Positions 12,163 through 29,547 of a stretch of DNA of 30,624 nucleotides are shown here, in pieces. Every line of letters begins with the position of its first letter. Positions within the stretch are counted from its first letter, which is position 1. The position numbers were made by a program, and so were the translations under genes. The stretch comes from Escherichia phage 186, in sequence record NC_001317.1; one strand, given 5' to 3'. The notes beneath the pieces were generated by a model. The model was not told the origin of the DNA, did no database searches, and saw nothing but the letters and a program-made list of their open reading frames with translations.

Positions 12163-13551
12163 ATGAGCACGAAATTTAAAACTATTATCACCACTGCCGG
12201 AGCCGAAAAACTGGCAGCGGCTACTGTGCCGGGTGGTAAAAAAGTGAATATCACCGTGATGGCCGTTGGTGACGGAGGCGGAAAACTGCCAGTGCCGGAC
12301 GCCGGTCAGGTGCAGCTCGTGAATGAGGTCTGGCGCCATGCCCTGAATAAAATCAGCCAGGACAACCGGAACAGCAATTACATTGTAGCCGAGCTGGTTA
12401 TTCCGCCCGAGGTGGGAGGATTCTGGATGCGCGAGTTGGGTCTTTATGATGACGAGGGCACTCTCATTGCTGTTGCCAATATGGCAGAAAGCTACAAGCC
12501 AGAACTTGCCGAGGGCTCAGGCCGTGCGCAGACATGTCGCATGGTCATTATTGTCAGCAGTATTGCCTCAGTTGAATTATCCATTGATTCGACAATGGTA
12601 ATGGCGACGCAGGAATATGTTGATGACAGGATTGCGGAACATGAGAAGTCACGTCGACATCCTGACGCCACACTGAAAGAAAAAGGCTTTACTCAACTCA
12701 GTAGCGCAACAGACAGCGCGTCTGAGGTGCTTGCGGCGACGCCGAAAGCGGTTAAAGCGGCGTATGACCTTGCTAATGCTAAATATACCGCTCAGGACGC
12801 GAGCACAGCGCAAAAAGGCATTGTGAGGCTGAGTAGTGCGGCAGACAGTACCAGTGAAGCTGAGGCCGCAACACCGAAAGCTGTCAAAATTGCGATGGAT
12901 AATGCGAATGCGAGGCTGGCAAAAGACCGGAACGGCGCTGATATTCCGAATCCGCCGTTGTTTGTCCAGAATATCGGTTTAAAACCCACGGTCGATAAAG
13001 CTGCTAATGCCGTTGATAAAAATGGCGACACGATGAACGGAAACCTGACACTCAAGGGTGATTACCGGCTGAGTTTTATTATCCAGAATGAAGACGGTTC
13101 TATTCGTGCTTATATCTTCAAGGACAAAGGTGGCGACGGTATTCGCATCAGTAATGGCGATGACGGCGGCGGTGATTTTGTTTTTGGTAAAAATGGACAG
13201 TTTTACTGCCCGGATATTATGCATGTTGGTAATACGATTGTATGGGGTGACGGAAATATCGAGGGGGCGCGATGGGGCGGTTTGTTGAGCGACTGGTTAA
13301 CTGCTCAACTGGTTGCCCGTGACAATAATATTAACTTGCGAGCACCCTATGAATGGGTTAACCAAAACTTTGTCAACCGTGCACAGCGCGGCGCACAGGC
13401 CAGCATGACTATGGACGGCGGACTTGTAGAGGCTCCATGGGGATGTTTTCTTACGGGGGGGAACGGTAACGAGGGTAATCAGGTTGGAGTGGCTTTATAC
13501 CGTCCATTGCAGATTCTTCGCAATAATACTTGGGTAACGATAGAGAACTGA
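12163..13551 (+). CDS. Tail fiber protein (P2 gpH-like N-terminus; divergent C-terminal receptor-binding region)
   Basis: 462 aa. The N-terminal ~150 aa are the conserved baseplate-attachment domain (MSTKFKTIITTAGAEKLAAATVPGGKK...). An internal tandem duplication follows (SSATDSASEVLAATPKAVKAAYDLANAKY / SSAADSTSEAEAATPKAVKIAMDNANARL), then a Gly-rich, AT-richer C-terminus. SD GAGGA upstream. Confidence 0.9.
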   Translation: MSTKFKTIITTAGAEKLAAATVPGGKKVNITVMAVGDGGGKLPVPDAGQVQLVNEVWRHALNKISQDNRNSNYIVAELVIPPEVGGFWMRELGLYDDEGTLIAVANMAESYKPELAEGSGRAQTCRMVIIVSSIASVELSIDSTMVMATQEYVDDRIAEHEKSRRHPDATLKEKGFTQLSSATDSASEVLAATPKAVKAAYDLANAKYTAQDASTAQKGIVRLSSAADSTSEAEAATPKAVKIAMDNANARLAKDRNGADIPNPPLFVQNIGLKPTVDKAANAVDKNGDTMNGNLTLKGDYRLSFIIQNEDGSIRAYIFKDKGGDGIRISNGDDGGGDFVFGKNGQFYCPDIMHVGNTIVWGDGNIEGARWGGLLSDWLTAQLVARDNNINLRAPYEWVNQNFVNRAQRGAQASMTMDGGLVEAPWGCFLTGGNGNEGNQVGVALYRPLQILRNNTWVTIEN

Positions 13552-13553
13552 AA

Positions 13554-14054
13554 ATGAAACTGATTAATTTGCAACGCTACATTCTGATGAATTATTTTTT
13601 AGGTGATGGCATTCAGTATTTTATAGATGCCACAGGTAAGGACTGGTATAAATCACTGCCCAAATTCACAAAGAAATACAGCCTTGCTATCGAAAATGAT
13701 ACGGGCGTTATTCGTAGTATCAGCGAAGATGCATCCCGGCTTTATCCCGGTGGTTTGACCGTTGTTGATGTTGACAGTATTCCGGCAGGTTGTGACATTT
13801 TCGGCGGATGGGTATTTGACGGAGAGAAAGTCATTCCTCGTGAGTACACATTGGCCGAACAGCAACGCCAGTCAGATGAAAAGAAAAAAACACTTCTTGC
13901 TGAGGCGGAGGCAACAATTTCCACGCTTGAGCGTGCGGTAAGGTTAGGCATGGCTACCGGGGAAGAAATAAGGCGACTCGAAGCATGGGAGCGTTACAGC
14001 GTATTGGTGAGCAGGGTTAAGCAGTCAGATGACTGGCCGCAAAAACCTGAATAA
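13554..14054 (+). CDS. Tail fiber assembly chaperone (P2 gpG/Tfa-like)
   Basis: ATG at 13554, 2 nt after the tail fiber stop; 166 aa; immediately downstream of the fiber gene with the typical Tfa arrangement. Confidence 0.8.
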   Translation: MKLINLQRYILMNYFLGDGIQYFIDATGKDWYKSLPKFTKKYSLAIENDTGVIRSISEDASRLYPGGLTVVDVDSIPAGCDIFGGWVFDGEKVIPREYTLAEQQRQSDEKKKTLLAEAEATISTLERAVRLGMATGEEIRRLEAWERYSVLVSRVKQSDDWPQKPE

Positions 14055-14182
14055 CCCGGCGGCATTTGCCCGCTTCTTTCTCATCCATTAGTTGTGCCAG
14101 ACATCATCCAGCCCTGACAAATAGCCCCTCACAAGACCAGCCAGGACAATAACACTCGCCCACTAACTACGGAGTTAACCGG

Positions 14183-22433: not shown

Positions 22434-23011
22434 TAGTTAACCTCGCTGTATACACCCACCACACGCCCCAACGTTTTAATATCATCAATGCCGCATTCGA
22501 AAGGAACCTTCCCGCCTGCAACATGTAGTTTTCTACCCGGTAGTTTTGTTAACTCTCGAATGCTTATTGCTCCCTCAATGTCGACTAGCCATAAGCCGTC
22601 AGACAATGATGCTTGCTTGTCCACAAAATAAATTTTCCCCTCGGAACGGATAGCCATCCCATCTGTGAGCGGTTTTGTGAAAAATTGGGCATCAACACTC
22701 AATTGTTTATCGGATTTGAGGATTTCTTCACTTAATGTGAATCCCTCAATCCTTTTTGCGTCGCTCGATTCTCTGTTATTTACAAATGCTTCTCCTTCTC
22801 CGGTAAGTAACCACTGGAGATTAGCACCTGTTTCAAGGGCACAGTGAGCCGCAAAGTCATAGGAGATAGCGCCTCGGGTGTACCTGTTTGACAATGAGCT
22901 GGACGCGATATCGAAGTGGTTAGCTAATTGAATTTTCTGCGAAAATCCGTACGCCTCGCAGATGCGGTCAAGTACATCCACGTTGCTCCATCCTAAAGAA
23001 TCTATTCTCAT
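22433..23011 (-). CDS. cI: Lysogeny (immunity) repressor, 186 CI-type
   Basis: 192-aa ORF MRIDSLGWSNVDVLDRICEAYGFSQKIQLANHFDIASSSLSNRYTRGAISYDFAAHCALETGANLQWLLTGEG...: N-terminal HTH domain plus C-terminal domain. Divergent from the early operon and co-transcribed with int. Size and sequence match my recollection of phage 186 CI (P2 C is only about 99 aa). Confidence 0.88.
   Translation of the reverse strand: MRIDSLGWSNVDVLDRICEAYGFSQKIQLANHFDIASSSLSNRYTRGAISYDFAAHCALETGANLQWLLTGEGEAFVNNRESSDAKRIEGFTLSEEILKSDKQLSVDAQFFTKPLTDGMAIRSEGKIYFVDKQASLSDGLWLVDIEGAISIRELTKLPGRKLHVAGGKVPFECGIDDIKTLGRVVGVYSEVN
22725..22741. promoter_or_regulatory. Inverted repeat CTTCAC-N5-GTGAAT inside the repressor gene (putative flanking operator, left)
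   Basis: CTTCACTTAATGTGAAT, about 370 bp left of the switch region; same dyad as at the late-activator promoter and at 23404..23420. Confidence 0.45.
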
Positions 23012-23140
23012 TTCGATAAAACCTATTTACTATCTCTCAATTGGGAGATATATTTTGGCTAAACCCACGCAATTGATGGCAAGTGTTGGCAAACAGAGTC
23101 AAATCAATTGCAAACTTTGGCTAATAGGGAATCATGCAAT
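23012..23140. promoter_or_regulatory. Lysis/lysogeny switch region: divergent promoters for cI (leftward) and apl/cII (rightward) with operator-like dyads
   Basis: 129-bp intergenic region containing the palindrome ATCTC-TCAATTGG-GAGAT (23022..23039), three CAATTG hexamers (about 23029, 23067, 23096) and a direct repeat TTTGGCTAA (about 23044 and 23114). Confidence 0.6.
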
Positions 23141-23404
23141 ATGGCTTCTGAAATCGCAATCATCAAAGTGCCTGCACCTATCGTTACTCTGCAACAATTC
23201 GCAGAGCTTGAGGGTGTTTCTGAACGCACCGCCTACCGCTGGACAACCGGCGACAACCCTTGTGTACCAATCGAACCCCGCACAATCCGTAAAGGCTGCA
23301 AGAAAGCAGGTGGCCCGATTCGCATTTATTACGCACGCTGGAAAGAAGAGCAGTTGCGTAAGGCGTTGGGACATTCCCGTTTTCAACTCGTCATCGGTGC
23401 TTAA
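23141..23404 (+). CDS. apl: Apl/Cox-type excisionase and transcriptional regulator
   Basis: The ORF track starts at a TTG (23108); the ATG at 23141 (SD AGGGA) gives an 87-aa protein MASEIAIIKVPAPIVTLQQFAELEGVSERTAYRWTTG... with an Xis-like HTH. First gene of the rightward early operon. Confidence 0.85.
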   Translation: MASEIAIIKVPAPIVTLQQFAELEGVSERTAYRWTTGDNPCVPIEPRTIRKGCKKAGGPIRIYYARWKEEQLRKALGHSRFQLVIGA

Positions 23405-24366: not shown

Positions 24367-24432
24367 TTAATTAAACGTAATTACTTGGCGTAAACCCGCC
24401 GGGCATTCTTTTGCCAAAAAACAGGAGGATAT

Positions 24433-24666
24433 ATGAGTCGAACTATTTATTTATCAACGCCGAGTGGTGCTGGCGACCACTTGCTGGAGTCTTTGTTTAA
24501 AGAAGCCAAAAAAGAAGAGCGCAAAGACCGCCGTCTCGCCGTTTCAATCCGTCTCGAAGATCTGGCCGTTCACATTACCAATTCAGATATGACAGGCAAA
24601 GAAGCGGCCGAGCTACTGCGCCGCGAAGCCACTCGCTTTGAGAACGAATCACAGGAGCTTCACTAA
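24433..24666 (+). CDS. Hypothetical early protein
   Basis: 77-aa ORF with a strong SD (AGGAGG); charged, helical-looking sequence with no recognisable motif. Confidence 0.6.
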   Translation: MSRTIYLSTPSGAGDHLLESLFKEAKKEERKDRRLAVSIRLEDLAVHITNSDMTGKEAAELLRREATRFENESQELH

Positions 24667-24893
24667 TGGCCGACGCAATGGATTTAGCACAACTGCGCGA
24701 GCAGGAAGACCGCGAACGCCACATAAGCAACGCGCGCAGCCGTCGCCATGAGGTTTCTGCATTTATCTGTGAGGAATGCGATGCACCTATCCCGGAAGCG
24801 CGCCGCCGAGCCATACCGGGCGTGCAGTGCTGCGTTACCTGTCAGGAAATCTTAGAGCTGAAAAGTAAACATTATAACGGAGGTGCTTTATGA
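24666..24893 (+). CDS. TraR/DksA-family C4 zinc-finger protein
   Basis: 75-aa ORF whose ATG overlaps the previous stop; CEEC-x17-CCVTC zinc-finger pattern (FICEECDAPIPEARRRAIPGVQCCVTCQE), typical of phage TraR-like proteins. Confidence 0.7.
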   Translation: MADAMDLAQLREQEDRERHISNARSRRHEVSAFICEECDAPIPEARRRAIPGVQCCVTCQEILELKSKHYNGGAL

Positions 24894-25474
24894 GCATTAC
24901 CAATGCAACTATTAGCCAGCGTGCAAAAAAATGGCTTGAAGATGACCGTATATTTATTGACACCGAAACTACGGGTTTGGGTGATGATGCGGAAATAGTA
25001 GAAATCTGTTTAATAGATAGCGCTGGTTTTATCATGCTAAATACATTGGTTAAACCAACTAAACCAATTCCAGCAGAGGCTACGGCCATTCATGGAATAA
25101 CTGATGAAATGGTTATGTATGCGCCAACGTGGAAAGATATTCACGGCGCAGTAGCTTCTTTATTTTTTGAGTATGGCTTTGTTATTTATAACGCCGATTA
25201 CGACACAAGACTTATATATCAAACTGCGAAATTATATGGGCTTGAGAATGACGGCTTTTGTTATTTTTTAAATGAGCGTTCGGCCTGCGCCATGATGCTA
25301 TATGCAGAGTATCGCGGCGAGCCAGGGCGATTTAAAGGTTATAAATGGCACAAATTAGTTGATGCCGCTGCACATGAAGGGGTTAGCGTTGAAGGAAAGG
25401 CACACCGTGCATTAGCAGATTGCCGGATGACTCTTGGCATTATCGACGCTTTGGCAAAAGGCGGTGCAGCATGA
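24890..25474 (+). CDS. DnaQ-like (DEDDh) 3'-5' exonuclease
   Basis: 194 aa with Exo I (FIDTETTGL), Exo II (VIYNADYD) and Exo III (HRALADC) motifs; translationally coupled; AT-rich. Confidence 0.8.
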   Translation: MSITNATISQRAKKWLEDDRIFIDTETTGLGDDAEIVEICLIDSAGFIMLNTLVKPTKPIPAEATAIHGITDEMVMYAPTWKDIHGAVASLFFEYGFVIYNADYDTRLIYQTAKLYGLENDGFCYFLNERSACAMMLYAEYRGEPGRFKGYKWHKLVDAAAHEGVSVEGKAHRALADCRMTLGIIDALAKGGAA

Positions 25475-25746
25475 GTATCCGTATCGAAATAGGTGATAAA
25501 TGGGTAATCACCAGCGACCAATATCAATTCATCCTGAATGAAAAAAAAGTCGTTAAGACCGGCAATAAAGCTGGCGAGGAATGGCTCGACACCATCGGTT
25601 ATTACCCGAAGATTAATCAGCTCATTTCTGGTCTGGTACATCACCACATTCATACGGCAATGATTATTTCCCTTAGTGCAATGGCAGAGGAAATAGAGAA
25701 GTTATCTTTTATCTGTGAAGAAGCATTTAAGGCGGTTAAAAAATGA
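25471..25746 (+). CDS. Hypothetical early protein
   Basis: The ATG at 25471 overlapping the exonuclease stop gives 91 aa (MSIRIEIGDKWVITSDQYQFILNEKK...); no recognisable motif. Confidence 0.55.
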   Translation: MSIRIEIGDKWVITSDQYQFILNEKKVVKTGNKAGEEWLDTIGYYPKINQLISGLVHHHIHTAMIISLSAMAEEIEKLSFICEEAFKAVKK

Positions 25747-26747
25747 TTGATTCCCGCTGCTTTGCTGAAAGCACAATAAATATTGTTTCTGTTTCTGGTG
25801 GAAAGGACAGCCTTGCTCAATGGATTCTTGCGGTAGAGAACGACGTACCGCGCACCACTGTTTTTGCAGATACCGGGCATGAGCATTCCCAAACAATGGA
25901 GTATCTGGATTATCTTGAATCCAGACTCGGCCCGGTTATTCGAGTGAAAGCCGATTTTACTCGGCGGATTGAAGGCAAACGGAAATTCATTGCTGAAAAA
26001 TGGCCTGTCTCTCTCGTTGAAGAATGCGGAATGTCTCATGAGCAGGCTGCAGAACGAATCGCAAAGGCACTGGAAATCCTTAAGCCAACCGGTAATCCGT
26101 TTCTCGATTTGTGCATGTGGAAAGGACGGTTCCCGAGCACGAAAGCAAGGTTTTGTTCACTGGAACTGAAACATGACTCAGTACGGGACAAGATTGTACT
26201 CCCAGCGCTGGAGAAATATGACGAAGTAATTCTATGGCAGGGTGTTCGTGCTCAGGAGTCACCAGCCCGCGCTGCGTTACCTATGTGGGAGGAGGATGCA
26301 GATAATACCCCCGGTTTGCATGTGTATCGCCCAATTCTTAACTGGACACATGAAGACGTATTTGCCTTAGCTAAACGACACGGAATTAAACCGAACCCAC
26401 TCTATCAGCAAGGTTGTAGCAGAGTTGGCTGCATGCCATGTATTCATGCAAGAAAATCTGAGCTGGCAGAGATTTTTGCTCGCTGGCCGGAGGAGATTGC
26501 GCGCGTTGCAGAGTGGGAACGTCTTGTTGCTGCCTGTTCACGTCGGGGAAACTCAACATTTTTCCCTTCGACTCACGACCCGCGGCGAGCAGAAAAACGT
26601 ATTGAAGTTGTTACCGTAGAAGAATATGGGATAGCTTCATATCGTGACTGGGCGATGACTACGCGTGGCGGTTCTCAGTACGATTTGCTCGCTGCTACAA
26701 ACGACAAAACTGTGTGCAGTAGCGTTTATGCCGGTGTATGTGAATGA
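25743..26747 (+). CDS. PAPS reductase-like / PP-loop ATP-pyrophosphatase family protein (DndC-like fold)
   Basis: 334 aa with the N-terminal PP-loop SVSGGKDS and a C-terminal Cys cluster (GCSRVGCMPC); translationally coupled upstream and with gene A downstream. Confidence 0.8.
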   Translation: MIDSRCFAESTINIVSVSGGKDSLAQWILAVENDVPRTTVFADTGHEHSQTMEYLDYLESRLGPVIRVKADFTRRIEGKRKFIAEKWPVSLVEECGMSHEQAAERIAKALEILKPTGNPFLDLCMWKGRFPSTKARFCSLELKHDSVRDKIVLPALEKYDEVILWQGVRAQESPARAALPMWEEDADNTPGLHVYRPILNWTHEDVFALAKRHGIKPNPLYQQGCSRVGCMPCIHARKSELAEIFARWPEEIARVAEWERLVAACSRRGNSTFFPSTHDPRRAEKRIEVVTVEEYGIASYRDWAMTTRGGSQYDLLAATNDKTVCSSVYAGVCE

Positions 26748-28828
26748 CGGGTGTCGTTTACGCGTTTCCGTGGAATGCCCCACGGTCGGCAATAGCCAGC
26801 TCATATCTTACCTATGACCAACAGCATCGCCGCGACCGTATGTTCGCGGCTTTGCTGCATGCGAGAAAGGTGCTTTTTCTCCAGCCAGAATGTGTGCGCT
26901 TTGACGTTTATCGCACCGCTGCAGTTCTGGAGCAAAATCAGGGCAGTCAACGAGCCAATGCCTTTTTAATCAGCTTCTGCAAAAAGGCATTACCACGTCT
27001 TGAACTGGTCGCAAAAAAATACGAGTGCTCGGGCATCAACAGCAATGTATCAGCCGCTGTTTTCGATGGTCATTTTGATACCCAGCTTATGCAATATCTG
27101 GCGTCACGCATGGTCAATATGGTCGCCAGATTTAACCGCCTCCCGGATATGTCGCGCGCCGATATTGACCTGCTGGCCGCGGATATCGCTAATTTTATTC
27201 GCGCTGAACTGGCCGACATTGATGACACCGGATTTAGCGAACTCAAAACGCTGTACACTTGGTACATGCGCGCCGGTTTTATTTCCCTGCAATTCAACGT
27301 TACACCGCCGAAATGGGAGCGTGTGACTAAAAAATATTTTTGTGAGGATGAAATCGCACCGGCAGTAATGCGCATGTTTAATGAGGTTTGGTGGCGCGGC
27401 CGCTTGCGACGCATTGCGGCTGCATGGCGCGAACATCTGCAAATTGCAGTCGGCAACGTAAGCAAGAAACGACACGCATACGCGAGTAAAAACTGCGTCA
27501 CCGACTGGCGCGAGCAGAAGCGCCGCACGCGCGAATTTCTCAAGGGGCTGGATCTCGAAGACGAAGAAGGCAACCGCATCAGTCTGATTGAAAAATACGA
27601 CGGCTCGGTCGCTAATCCAGCAATACGCCGCTGTGAGCTGATGGCCCGCATTCGTGGGTTTGAAAATATCTGTAATGAGCTCGGTTATGTCGGGGAGTTC
27701 TATACTCTGACTGCACCGTCTAAATATCACGCCACCACCAAAGCGGGCTACCGTAACAGCAAATGGAACGGTGCAAGCCCGTCAGACACGCAGAGCTATC
27801 TCACAGGCCTTTGGGCACGCATACGCGCCAAGCTGCACCGGGAAGAAATCCGCATTTTCGGAATACGCGTCGCTGAACCGCATCACGATGGAACGCCGCA
27901 CTGGCATATGCTTATGTTCATGTTGCCGGAAGATGTCGAGCGTGTGCGACTCATCATCCGAGATTATGCGTGGGAGGAAGACCACTACGAACTGAGAAGC
28001 GATAAAGCCAAAAAGGCGCGCTTCCATGCTGAGGCCATTGACCCGGAAAAAGGCAGTGCTACTGGCTATGTCGCTAAATACATTTCCAAAAATATCGACG
28101 GTTATGCTCTCGATGGTGAAACCGATGACGAAAGTGGTGAGTTGTTAAAAGAGACTGCACCCGCCGTTTCAGCATGGGCGGCGCGCTGGCACATCCGTCA
28201 GTTTCAATTTATCGGCGGTGCGCCGGTGACGGTATACAGGGAGCTACGCAGAATGGCTGACCCTGAAACAGCCAGGGCGCTCAGTGTTGAATTCGCCGCA
28301 GTGCATGATGCTGCTCACTATGGACGCTGGGCTGATTATGTGAATGCTCAAGGCGGACCATTCGTTCGCCGTGACGATTTACAGGTACGTACATTGTATG
28401 AACCTCGAACTGAATTTAATCAGTATGGCGAAGAAACTGTGTGCATCAAAGGTGTCTACGATGCCTCGATAGGTGCTGGCTCTCCTATTCTAACCCGGTT
28501 AACGCAGTGGAAGATTGTTCCAAAGCGTGCCGTTGATTTGGCCGTTGACGTTAAGGGCGCTTCTGCGCCCTCTCGGAGTTCTGTCAATAACTGTACGGGA
28601 AGCGAAAGCGATCCACCGATACTCGATTTAACAAAACCGCTGAGTCGGCGTGAAAGACGAGAGTTGACGAACCGACTCAGGAAGAAAAAGCCAACAACAC
28701 GGCGAAAATTCATCCACGGAACGGATAAGCAAAACGTCGCTATAACGAAAACTATCGACGAGATACACTCTGACAACCGGCATCACAATCAGCCGGGGCG
28801 AAGCCCTGCACCTGATGGCCGGTGGTAA
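26744..28828 (+). CDS. A: Rolling-circle replication initiator endonuclease (P2/186 gpA family)
   Basis: 694 aa with the HUH-type motif (HHDGTPHWHMLMF) and active-site tyrosine region (GYVAKYISKNIDGYAL); last gene of the early operon. Confidence 0.92.
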   Translation: MTGVVYAFPWNAPRSAIASSYLTYDQQHRRDRMFAALLHARKVLFLQPECVRFDVYRTAAVLEQNQGSQRANAFLISFCKKALPRLELVAKKYECSGINSNVSAAVFDGHFDTQLMQYLASRMVNMVARFNRLPDMSRADIDLLAADIANFIRAELADIDDTGFSELKTLYTWYMRAGFISLQFNVTPPKWERVTKKYFCEDEIAPAVMRMFNEVWWRGRLRRIAAAWREHLQIAVGNVSKKRHAYASKNCVTDWREQKRRTREFLKGLDLEDEEGNRISLIEKYDGSVANPAIRRCELMARIRGFENICNELGYVGEFYTLTAPSKYHATTKAGYRNSKWNGASPSDTQSYLTGLWARIRAKLHREEIRIFGIRVAEPHHDGTPHWHMLMFMLPEDVERVRLIIRDYAWEEDHYELRSDKAKKARFHAEAIDPEKGSATGYVAKYISKNIDGYALDGETDDESGELLKETAPAVSAWAARWHIRQFQFIGGAPVTVYRELRRMADPETARALSVEFAAVHDAAHYGRWADYVNAQGGPFVRRDDLQVRTLYEPRTEFNQYGEETVCIKGVYDASIGAGSPILTRLTQWKIVPKRAVDLAVDVKGASAPSRSSVNNCTGSESDPPILDLTKPLSRRERRELTNRLRKKKPTTRRKFIHGTDKQNVAITKTIDEIHSDNRHHNQPGRSPAPDGRW

Positions 28829-29043
28829 AAGTTGTTTTAACGGTCGATGGGTGCGCGGAACGTCAAAAGGTGAAATCTTTGCTGCAGCTCCTTCACATCA
28901 GGCGAGACGCGGAAAATCCTTAATCGTGTTGCAGATTTAGCTGAGCTGGCAACGAAAATGTAACCGCTAATATTCATCCATATCATGTACATACAGTGTA
29001 TTTAACTGTGATTTTTTTCTTCACACCTTTTGCCAATACGTGC

Positions 29044-29063
29044 TACTGTATGTTTATACAGTA
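29044..29063. promoter_or_regulatory. LexA box (SOS operator) overlapping the promoter of the antirepressor gene
   Basis: TACTGTATGTTTATACAGTA fits the CTGT-N8-ACAG LexA consensus (17 of 20 against TACTGTATATATATACAGTA). A possible -35 TTGCCA (29031..29036) and -10 TATACA (29055..29060) overlap it. Confidence 0.8.
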
Positions 29064-29081
29064 TCTCGTAGTGGAGGTTGT

Positions 29082-29522
29082 GTGGATAGAGAGCTAAATG
29101 AGCACGTTATGATTGAGCGGGTCGAAATGATTGCGCGTCTGACTGCTGAAGGTACTTGTCAGGAAAGAGACCGTGAAATCGCATTGAATCTAATTGCGGA
29201 AATAGCAAGAGGCAACCTAATGAAAAATAATAATTTTTCTGTTGTTTTTTCCGCACCGCCTGTTGGTGAAACATTTGCAAAGGAGGGCAAAGTGAAAGTA
29301 AATATCACGTTGGATAAAGACCAAAAAATCGGCCAGCCGGTAATTGATGCTTTTCAGTGCGAATTGACCAAGCGAATACAGTCCGTTTTCCCGTCAACGC
29401 GCGTTACTGTTAAAAAGGGATCCATGACCGGTGTCGAGCTGATGGGGTTCGATAAAGATTCAGACCGCGAAGCGCTGGATAGCATCCTTCAGGAAGTGTG
29501 GGAAGATGAGAGCTGGCGTTAA
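29082..29522 (+). CDS. tum: SOS-inducible antirepressor with DinI-like C-terminal domain (186 Tum-type)
   Basis: GTG start at 29082 with SD GGAGG 5 nt upstream gives 146 aa. The C-terminal region ELTKRIQSVFPSTRVTVKKGSMTGVELMGFDKDSDREALDSILQEVWEDESW resembles DinI. Sits directly downstream of the LexA box; start-codon choice is inferred. Confidence 0.8.
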   Translation: MDRELNEHVMIERVEMIARLTAEGTCQERDREIALNLIAEIARGNLMKNNNFSVVFSAPPVGETFAKEGKVKVNITLDKDQKIGQPVIDAFQCELTKRIQSVFPSTRVTVKKGSMTGVELMGFDKDSDREALDSILQEVWEDESWR

Positions 29523-29547
29523 TCCCTGAAAAATGTGCAACCATCGA

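Follow-up and report, generated by a model that had tools for sequence, protein, structure and literature searches.

A gene-precise cassette in the early operon of phage 186 encodes CP81, a predicted stand-alone DEDDh 3'-5' exonuclease

CP81 of Escherichia phage 186 (24890-25474, plus strand) encodes a stand-alone exonuclease of the DEDDh (DnaQ-like) 3'-5' class, as assigned from the open reading frame list, Pfam, phrog_192 and an AlphaFold2 model. The gene makes up a gene-precise cassette by itself and occupies a variable slot flanked by a TraR-like gene and the replication initiator gene A; this arrangement is the new result here. On balance, we regard CP81 as probably an accessory, trans-acting, ExoX-like 3'-5' DNA-end exonuclease of the replication phase, carried as an optional cassette, although our preference for this reading is a modest one. 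All coordinates refer to the window, that is, the whole stretch of 30,624 nucleotides that was analysed (NC_001317.1), and every feature named below lies on its plus strand.

CP81 is a conserved member of the DEDDh superfamily

The first-pass annotation had described a 194-aa open reading frame with all three Exo motifs of the DEDDh family, and reading the sequence located each of them. Exo I (FIDTETTGL, residues 22-30; 24953-24979) contains the catalytic residues D24 and E26, Exo II (YNADYD, residues 100-105; 25187-25204) contains the catalytic D105, and Exo III (HRALADC, residues 172-178; 25403-25423) contains H172 and D177 in the arrangement of the 'h' variant. The Pfam profile RNase_T (PF00929) matches the protein end to end, with residues 21-184 aligned to profile positions 1-163 of 164, and scores 65.5 bits (E = 1.1e-17) against a gathering cut-off of 24 bits. 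The phage protein family phrog_192, which carries the PHROG name 'DNA polymerase exonuclease subunit', also matches (E = 4e-58). The open reading frame is genuine, and its motif set is far beyond chance.

An alignment of 30 homologues, with identity down to 49%, revealed no variation at D24, E26, D105, H172 or D177. Besides these catalytic positions, T25, T28 and G29 of Exo I, Y100 of Exo II, R173 and A174 of Exo III and the AIHGIT element were invariant, and N101 was conserved in at least 90% of sequences. The AlphaFold2 model built on this alignment (mean pLDDT 93, pTM 0.88) adopts an RNase H-like alpha/beta fold of the DnaQ type; Exo residues, profile threshold and fold all place CP81 in the RNase_T superfamily. 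Alignment and model agree on an extra, subfamily-specific N-terminal helix (residues 8-17) that contains an invariant tryptophan, W15. In the model, the last helix, that of Exo III, spans residues 174-189, and the C-terminus follows five residues on, at residue 194. The alignment contained no conserved C-terminal tail in the enterobacterial group of homologues; Serratia and Yersinia homologues bear C-terminal extensions of about 90 aa, and a Pfam search with these extensions returned no match.

We calculated dN/dS for 40 pairs drawn from ten phage homologues and the 186 gene and obtained a median of 0.11, which indicates strong purifying selection on CP81. The first-pass assignment to the stand-alone DnaQ-like exonucleases is borne out by Pfam, PDB matches, invariant residues, the AlphaFold2 model and Foldseek. 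Judging from its sequence, CP81 is highly likely to be an active two-metal DEDDh 3'-5' exonuclease that is made early in lytic growth.

CP81 is not a new gene, and public databases already annotate it as an exonuclease. An exact-sequence look-up returned AAC34183.1 (UniProt CP81_BP186, "Uncharacterized exonuclease CP81") as identical to the 194-aa product, and matched the next two products downstream to the Escherichia phage 186 proteins Orf83 and Orf84. Relatives in the records of Yersinia and Salmonella phages are labelled "exonuclease" or "putative exonuclease", and the RefSeq name for the family is "3'-5' exonuclease". CP81 is thus a member of a very large known family, with ordinary anatomy. 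Searches of a paper library found no functional, biochemical or genetic work on CP81 or on DnaQ-type exonucleases of P2-like phages.

Operon context and base composition

The gene order in 186 is integrase, CI, Apl/CII, Fil, DUF2732, TraR-like, CP81, DUF5405, PAPS-reductase family and A. CP81 had been placed in the early operon, and its surroundings agree with that placement: all genes from 24433 to 28828 lie on one strand with overlapping stop and start codons. A promoter and terminator scan, in which counts were at or below chance expectation, found no terminator-like site within this block and no internal promoter or terminator signal around CP81.

The gene upstream of CP81 encodes a TraR/DksA-type C4 zinc finger (24666-24893; Pfam zf-dskA_traR, E = 1.8e-10; 79.6 bits against TIGR02419, cut-off 59.7) and marks the left-hand, fixed edge of the variable slot. 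Its last codons contain the ribosome-binding site of CP81, read from the sequence as GGAGG (24880-24884), 5 nt upstream of the ATG, and its stop codon (24891-24893) overlaps the CP81 start as ATGA. The CP81 stop codon overlaps the ATG of orf83 (25471-25746; DUF5405, 91 aa, Pfam E = 2e-17) at 25471 in the same manner, and ATGA overlaps occur at four junctions in all (TraR/CP81, CP81/orf83, orf83/orf84 and orf84/A). Orf84 (25743-26747) is a PAPS-reductase family protein (Pfam PAPS_reduct, E = 1.2e-43) with PADLOC similarity to SspD, BrxP and DndC; its gene is carried by only some relatives and is a second optional cargo gene of the slot. Gene A (26744-28828; Pfam Phage_GPA, E = 1.9e-136) is the fixed right border. 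The first-pass annotation had named a TraR-like zinc finger and a PAPS-reductase-like protein as the two flanks of CP81. The TraR-like gene does adjoin CP81, whereas the PAPS-reductase gene is one gene removed, with Orf83 (DUF5405) between.

CP81 is unusually AT-rich, with a GC content of 42.2% (GC3 33.3%) compared with 53.1% for the genome. Its GC3 is the lowest among credible 186 genes, its GC content ranks among the bottom 0.7% of 585-nt windows across the 186 genome, and the genome-wide minimum for windows of that length begins at 24835. The contrast with the late genes, which had been noted at the outset, is real (late-gene mean, 55.6%); it needs qualifying within the early half of the genome (20.4-30.6 kb), where mean GC is 47.7% and CP81 has a z score of -1.7. 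The genes fil and orf83 are about as AT-rich as CP81. Of 67 loci in other phages, 65 have an exonuclease gene lower in GC than their gene A, with an average gap of 8.3 points. These values, together with the presence/absence polymorphism described below, support the earlier suggestion of horizontal acquisition.

CP81 is an optional cassette in the TraR-A slot

We compared 186 with five of its relatives that carry no exonuclease gene (L103, L104, L120, L136 and L141). In all five, 24874 is the last 186 position with blastn homology on the left; on the right, homology picks up again at 25471 in four relatives and at 25477 in L103. Together with junction sequences, these borders define a 596-bp cassette (24875-25470) that is replaced in exonuclease-less 186-like relatives by about 13 bp, as determined from the loci whose junction sequence was read. 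The unit of presence or absence is exactly the CP81 gene plus its ribosome-binding site.

To place this polymorphism in a wider frame, 79 close 186-like loci were collected by anchoring on gene A (at least 87% identical). The exonuclease is encoded in 13 of these, and in 28 the TraR-like gene directly abuts A. The TraR-A interval ranges from 11 bp to 1853 bp, the longest being that of 186 itself, with exonuclease, DUF5405 and PAPS reductase. Salmonella Fels-2-like loci likewise carry the exonuclease sporadically (7 of 79). Across 161 distinct intervals, the slot cargo included Dam methylase (86 intervals), exonuclease (36), DUF5405 (36), DUF3850/ASCH (29), PAPS reductase (13), a 173-aa phrog_21415 protein (10) and a DpdA-like "queuine tRNA-ribosyltransferase" (phrog_887; 7). 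Patchy presence, exact indel borders and low GC lead us to regard CP81 as an optional, mobile single-gene cassette.

At these frequencies in the 186-like and Fels-2-like loci, CP81 fails the conserved-presence test for a core component of the P2/186 replication machinery. Its dispensability agrees with gene A reportedly being the sole 186 gene needed for replication (Sivaprasad et al., J Mol Biol 1990).

Viral contigs that encode a relative of CP81 have the gene for gpA within 6 kb in 67 of 80 cases, almost always downstream, and a Dam gene follows the exonuclease gene in 50 of these 80 exonuclease-anchored loci. We considered functional coupling between exonuclease and Dam and rejected it: Dam is present in 77 of 79 Fels-2-like loci regardless of the exonuclease (7 of 79), and the 186-like clade has the exonuclease without Dam. 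The adjacency is a base-rate effect of Dam being near-universal in the Fels-2-like clade. Coupling to the PAPS reductase was also rejected, each gene being found without the other. As a separate observation, DUF5405 always lies downstream of the exonuclease gene in the 186-like clade; DUF5405 is also common where the exonuclease is missing.

Distribution beyond P2-like phages

In backbones other than those of P2-like phages, relatives of CP81 are encoded near a Rep_trans initiator, DnaG/Toprim primases and a D5-type helicase, with C5-cytosine methylases, DUF2303, Rha, antirepressor and antiterminator Q as further neighbours. These neighbourhoods are early or replication regions. Relatives with 33-57% identity over the full domain are also present on 3598 of 72,556 plasmid records (~5%), 2597 of them conjugative. 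Examples include IncI plasmids, in which the gene lies beside yacAB, and IncC plasmids, in which it lies between an integrase gene and a Tus-like gene. One further relative each was seen on a plasmid-like contig from a metagenome and in an islet of Aeromonas. A full-library search placed 294 clusters (50% identity) in the CP81 subfamily at E <= 1e-30; with the threshold relaxed to E <= 1e-10, it found 3598 clusters.

Among complete E. coli genomes the gene is rare. Megablast with the CP81 gene found no match in 5426 such genomes, and a homologue at about 71% nucleotide identity occurs in only 9 of them; 186-like early regions are present in 125. The identical protein occurs on 286 contigs and is common in Salmonella assemblies.

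Sequence and fold point to a DNA substrate

We searched PDB sequences, NCBIfam models and solved folds for the nearest relatives of CP81. The only PDB sequence matches were ExoX, PolC and epsilon, led by ExoX (4fzx, E = 7.6e-9) and followed by the PolC exonuclease domain and the epsilon subunit of Pol III; residues 22-110 account for most of the phmmer alignment to 4fzx. Foldseek placed epsilon, Staphylococcus aureus DinG with ssDNA, ExoX and PolC at the top (TM 0.57-0.72), with a probability of 1.00 for epsilon, ExoX, the DinG exonuclease and RNase T. RNase T and ERI1/3-type RNases were also among the fold matches, with TM scores of about 0.6-0.72 (RNase T, ~0.62).

The NCBIfam models that matched CP81 were all DNA exonucleases or epsilon-type, and every one of them scored far below its curated cut-off. 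The ExoX equivalog is one such case (NF005937, 47.2 versus 202 bits). By these profile comparisons, CP81 belongs to the DEDDh superfamily but to none of the epsilon, ExoX and RNase T families in the strict sense. Its closest resemblance is to enzymes working on DNA 3' ends, and DNA is its likely substrate, judging from its nearest relatives by sequence and fold, to which it is 20-29% identical.

Possible roles of CP81

We propose that CP81 would remove nucleotides from free 3'-OH ends of DNA by two-metal chemistry. Its transcription would be that of the early lytic block, with translation coupled on the upstream side to the TraR-like gene and on the downstream side to orf83; CP81 would thus be made as gene A starts rolling-circle replication. 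Since it has no polymerase-binding tail, CP81 most likely acts in trans and distributively. Its targets may be 3' ssDNA tails, nicks and gaps in DNA that is undergoing replication or recombination, and trimming them would help the phage only under certain conditions or in certain hosts. We infer the accessory role in replication or recombination from the recurrent neighbourhood with replication initiators and primases; this proximity may perhaps arise merely because all early accessory genes sit there. The other cargo of the slot, with its flavour of DNA modification and anti-restriction, points as much to counter-defence as to replication.

Counter-defence is the main rival to the accessory replication role, possible in our view and clearly the less probable of the two. 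CP81 would in that case destroy DNA with free 3' ends that host immunity makes or senses, candidates being retron msDNA, the cDNA of defence reverse transcriptases and 3' ssDNA ends to which end-sensing systems or RecA/SOS respond. Several features of the gene fit such a function: its cassette-like, sporadic presence (9-16% of close relatives), its foreign base composition, the company of Dam, DpdA-like (phrog_887), PAPS-reductase/SspD-like and ASCH/DUF3850 genes in the slot, and the homologues on 3598 of 72,556 plasmids (2597 conjugative) and on other mobile elements. In addition, at least one P4-hotspot defence system blocked each phage of a panel except 186cIts (Rousset et al. 2022, PMC9122126). 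The same authors, however, raise the possibility that defence systems borne on satellites spare the phages that serve as their helpers, and this would account for the 186 result. A PADLOC search, which covers a defence library and not an anti-defence library, also revealed no homology of CP81 to described anti-defence proteins and returned only generic DEDDh and PDC-S48 models. Exonucleases are not mentioned in the main text of a Nature 2024 paper on anti-defence genes of leading regions (PMC11541004), and the plasmid homologues that we examined do not lie within obvious leading-region anti-defence islands.

Extended from the gene to its site, the counter-defence reading would make the TraR-A interval an early-expressed anti-defence cargo site. 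We consider it rather doubtful that the interval serves P2/186-like phages in this way, with CP81 as one of its effectors. Such a site would be distinct from the published A-Q defence hotspot, and CP81 would work there alongside the DNA-modification cargo (Dam, DpdA-like, PAPS-reductase/SspD-like and ASCH). If this reading is true, plasmid members of the CP81 family would serve establishment in new hosts.

It is unlikely that CP81 is a trans-acting proofreader that replaces or supplements epsilon and corrects 3' mismatches when the host polymerase copies phage DNA, thereby raising phage fidelity. Pol III epsilon is indeed the top structural match (TM 0.69-0.72), the PHROG family takes its name from a polymerase exonuclease subunit, and replication initiators and primases neighbour the gene in several backbones. 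Nevertheless, CP81 stops at residue 194, after the Exo III helix, and neither the alignment nor the AlphaFold2 model contains the alpha-binding C-terminal extension or the clamp-binding motif of epsilon. Its scores against the epsilon equivalogs are also far too low (TIGR01406, 49.2 versus 222.7 bits; NF004316, 44.5 versus 196 bits). On these two grounds, score and C-terminal extension, we rejected CP81 as an epsilon replacement. Stand-alone DnaQ homologues are moreover common, at more than three per proteome, and mostly are not polymerase subunits (PMC12926913).

An RNA or oligonucleotide exonuclease of the RNase T, Orn or ERI type, or a degrader of linear nucleotide signals, is slightly less probable again. 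RNase T and the ERI1/3 family have the DEDDh fold in common with CP81 (TM 0.61-0.72), and the matching Pfam family bears the name RNase_T; yet none of the 25 NCBIfam matches at E <= 0.01 was an RNase T or Orn model, many were DNA-exonuclease models, and the PDB sequence matches include no RNase. The first-pass annotation had also suggested that CP81 might degrade host signalling nucleotides. DEDDh exonucleases attack a free 3'-OH end, and cyclic nucleotides have none. Because the chemistry needs such an end, degradation of cyclic signalling nucleotides by CP81 is mechanistically disfavoured and unlikely, and is the least likely option. Finally, it is very improbable that CP81 is a decaying hitch-hiker that does nothing for the phage: most relatives do without it, but its dN/dS of ~0.11, invariant catalytic residues, intact translational coupling and presence as an identical protein on 286 contigs all speak against decay.

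CP81 has been in the databases since deposition of the 186 genome, already under the name "exonuclease", and matters little as it stands. The puzzle is that a small stand-alone DnaQ-like exonuclease, kept under strong purifying selection, is carried by temperate phages whose replication relies on the host replisome and by about 5% of sequenced plasmids. Phage 186 is a classic genetic system, and natural, isogenic-like phage pairs with and without CP81 exist. The only route to a notable result would be the counter-defence reading of the TraR-A slot.

Comparison with known exonucleases

ExoX (4FZX/4FZY) is the solved structure closest to CP81 by sequence (28-29% identity). Both are small stand-alone DEDDh enzymes with an HxxxxD Exo III motif, and ExoX acts distributively on the 3' ends of ssDNA and dsDNA. 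By analogy, ExoX would be the best working model for CP81. The two differ in that CP81, the shorter protein, terminates directly behind its exonuclease domain, and in that CP81 has the extra N-terminal helix with W15, is borne by a phage and is optional.

The exonuclease domain of epsilon (1J53, 2IDO and 5FKV), the top match by fold, superposes with an rmsd of ~3 Å and has the DEDDh residues and an HGI(T) element in common with CP81. Epsilon binds polymerase alpha through its C-terminal segment, where its clamp-binding motif also lies. CP81 has neither the alpha-binding tail nor the clamp motif, is only 21-22% identical to epsilon, and scores far below the cut-offs of TIGR01406, NF004316 and TIGR00573.

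The S. aureus DinG exonuclease, the PolC exonuclease domain and Cas-associated DEDDh trimmers are also matches by fold (8zef, 2p1j and 8h2f), and the generic DEDDh model of PADLOC scores 99.5 bits against CP81. These enzymes, too, act on DNA 3' ends. In contrast to them, CP81 is unfused and has no cas, helicase or polymerase gene attached; the 186 genome contains no CRISPR context.

Conjugative plasmids (IncI, IncC and others) and further prophages carry "3'-5' exonuclease" genes that belong to the CP81 subfamily (33-57% identity in the plasmid records); those of the plasmids are, like CP81, annotated by domain only. Unlike CP81, the plasmid proteins that we examined are ~280-290 aa long and have an N-terminal extension of ~85 aa. 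Their genes adjoin toxin-antitoxin modules, integrases or Tus-like genes and not gene A.

Cassette borders

The gene for CP81, a predicted 194-aa DEDDh (DnaQ-like) 3'-5' exonuclease (24890-25474, + strand), forms together with its ribosome-binding site a cassette (24875-25470) that is optional among 186-like relatives. Similar short sequences, GGAGGTGCTTTATGAG at 24878-24894 and GGCGGTGCAGCATGAG at 25461-25477, mark its two borders, and the TraR-like protein and CP81 therefore both end in Gly-Gly-Ala-x, followed in each case by an ATGA stop/start overlap. This border repeat may have provided microhomology for cassette exchange. Alternatively, it may merely reflect a common ribosome-binding context, and a short repeat present in two copies can also arise by chance.

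Distribution and architecture of CP81 homologues

Among 5,426 complete E. coli genomes, CP81-type genes are nearly absent (9 genomes, at ~71% nucleotide identity). In 186-like prophages of this species (genome matches H26-H37; locus L256), the interval between the TraR-like gene and replication gene A is usually occupied by a DUF3850 gene instead of CP81. In Salmonella, by contrast, a protein identical to CP81 is common.

Homologues vary in architecture. C-terminal extensions of ~90 aa, for which no Pfam match was found, occur in the homologues P0035, P0046, P0120 (Serratia, compost) and L072:4721-5539, and plasmid homologues carry N-terminal extensions of ~85 aa (L254:8749-9597, L255:8728-9597); both kinds of extension may be partner-binding modules. 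The 'Dnq' protein of phage N15 (BFVD O21967, 114 aa) is a truncated relative (48% identity across 91 residues) in which just the N-terminal half of the exonuclease domain is represented; presumably it is either vestigial or a fragment that lacks catalytic function.

Base composition and terminator-like site

Additional low-GC troughs at 13200-14100, 22520-23212 and 28798-29545 suggest that composition is mosaic elsewhere in the phage 186 genome. The first spans an ORF at 13554-14054 (GC 45%) within a late region that is otherwise GC-rich, the second corresponds to the cI/pR-pL switch region and the third lies 3' of gene A. From the early promoter region to the end of gene A, the sole intergenic terminator-like site is a hairpin with a T-rich tail at 24384-24403 (+ strand), between fil and the DUF2732 gene, found in a scan that performed at chance level overall.

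Cargo of the TraR-A slot

Across P2/186-like phages (loci L014-L253), the segment separating the TraR-like gene from gene A (24894-26743 in phage 186) is a hypervariable cargo slot, ranging in length from 11 bp to >3 kb. Recurrent cargo comprises the exonuclease, Dam methylase, DUF5405, DUF3850/ASCH, PAPS reductase, a DpdA-like protein (phrog_887) and a 173-aa protein of phrog_21415. In a few P2-like contigs (L044, L047, L067), the exonuclease lies 3' rather than 5' of gene A, and the cassette is therefore not bound to a single insertion point.

Orf84 (25743-26747, + strand), which belongs to the PAPS-reductase family (Pfam E = 1.2e-43), is likewise optional among relatives and is placed in the phage early operon. 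DndA/D/E and Ssp partner genes are absent from the window; within the defence library, Orf84 most closely resembles SspD, BrxP and DndC, proteins of DNA-phosphorothioation/BREX systems. A defence hotspot between genes A and Q has been published for P2-like phages (PMC9122126), and the TraR-A slot is distinct from it.
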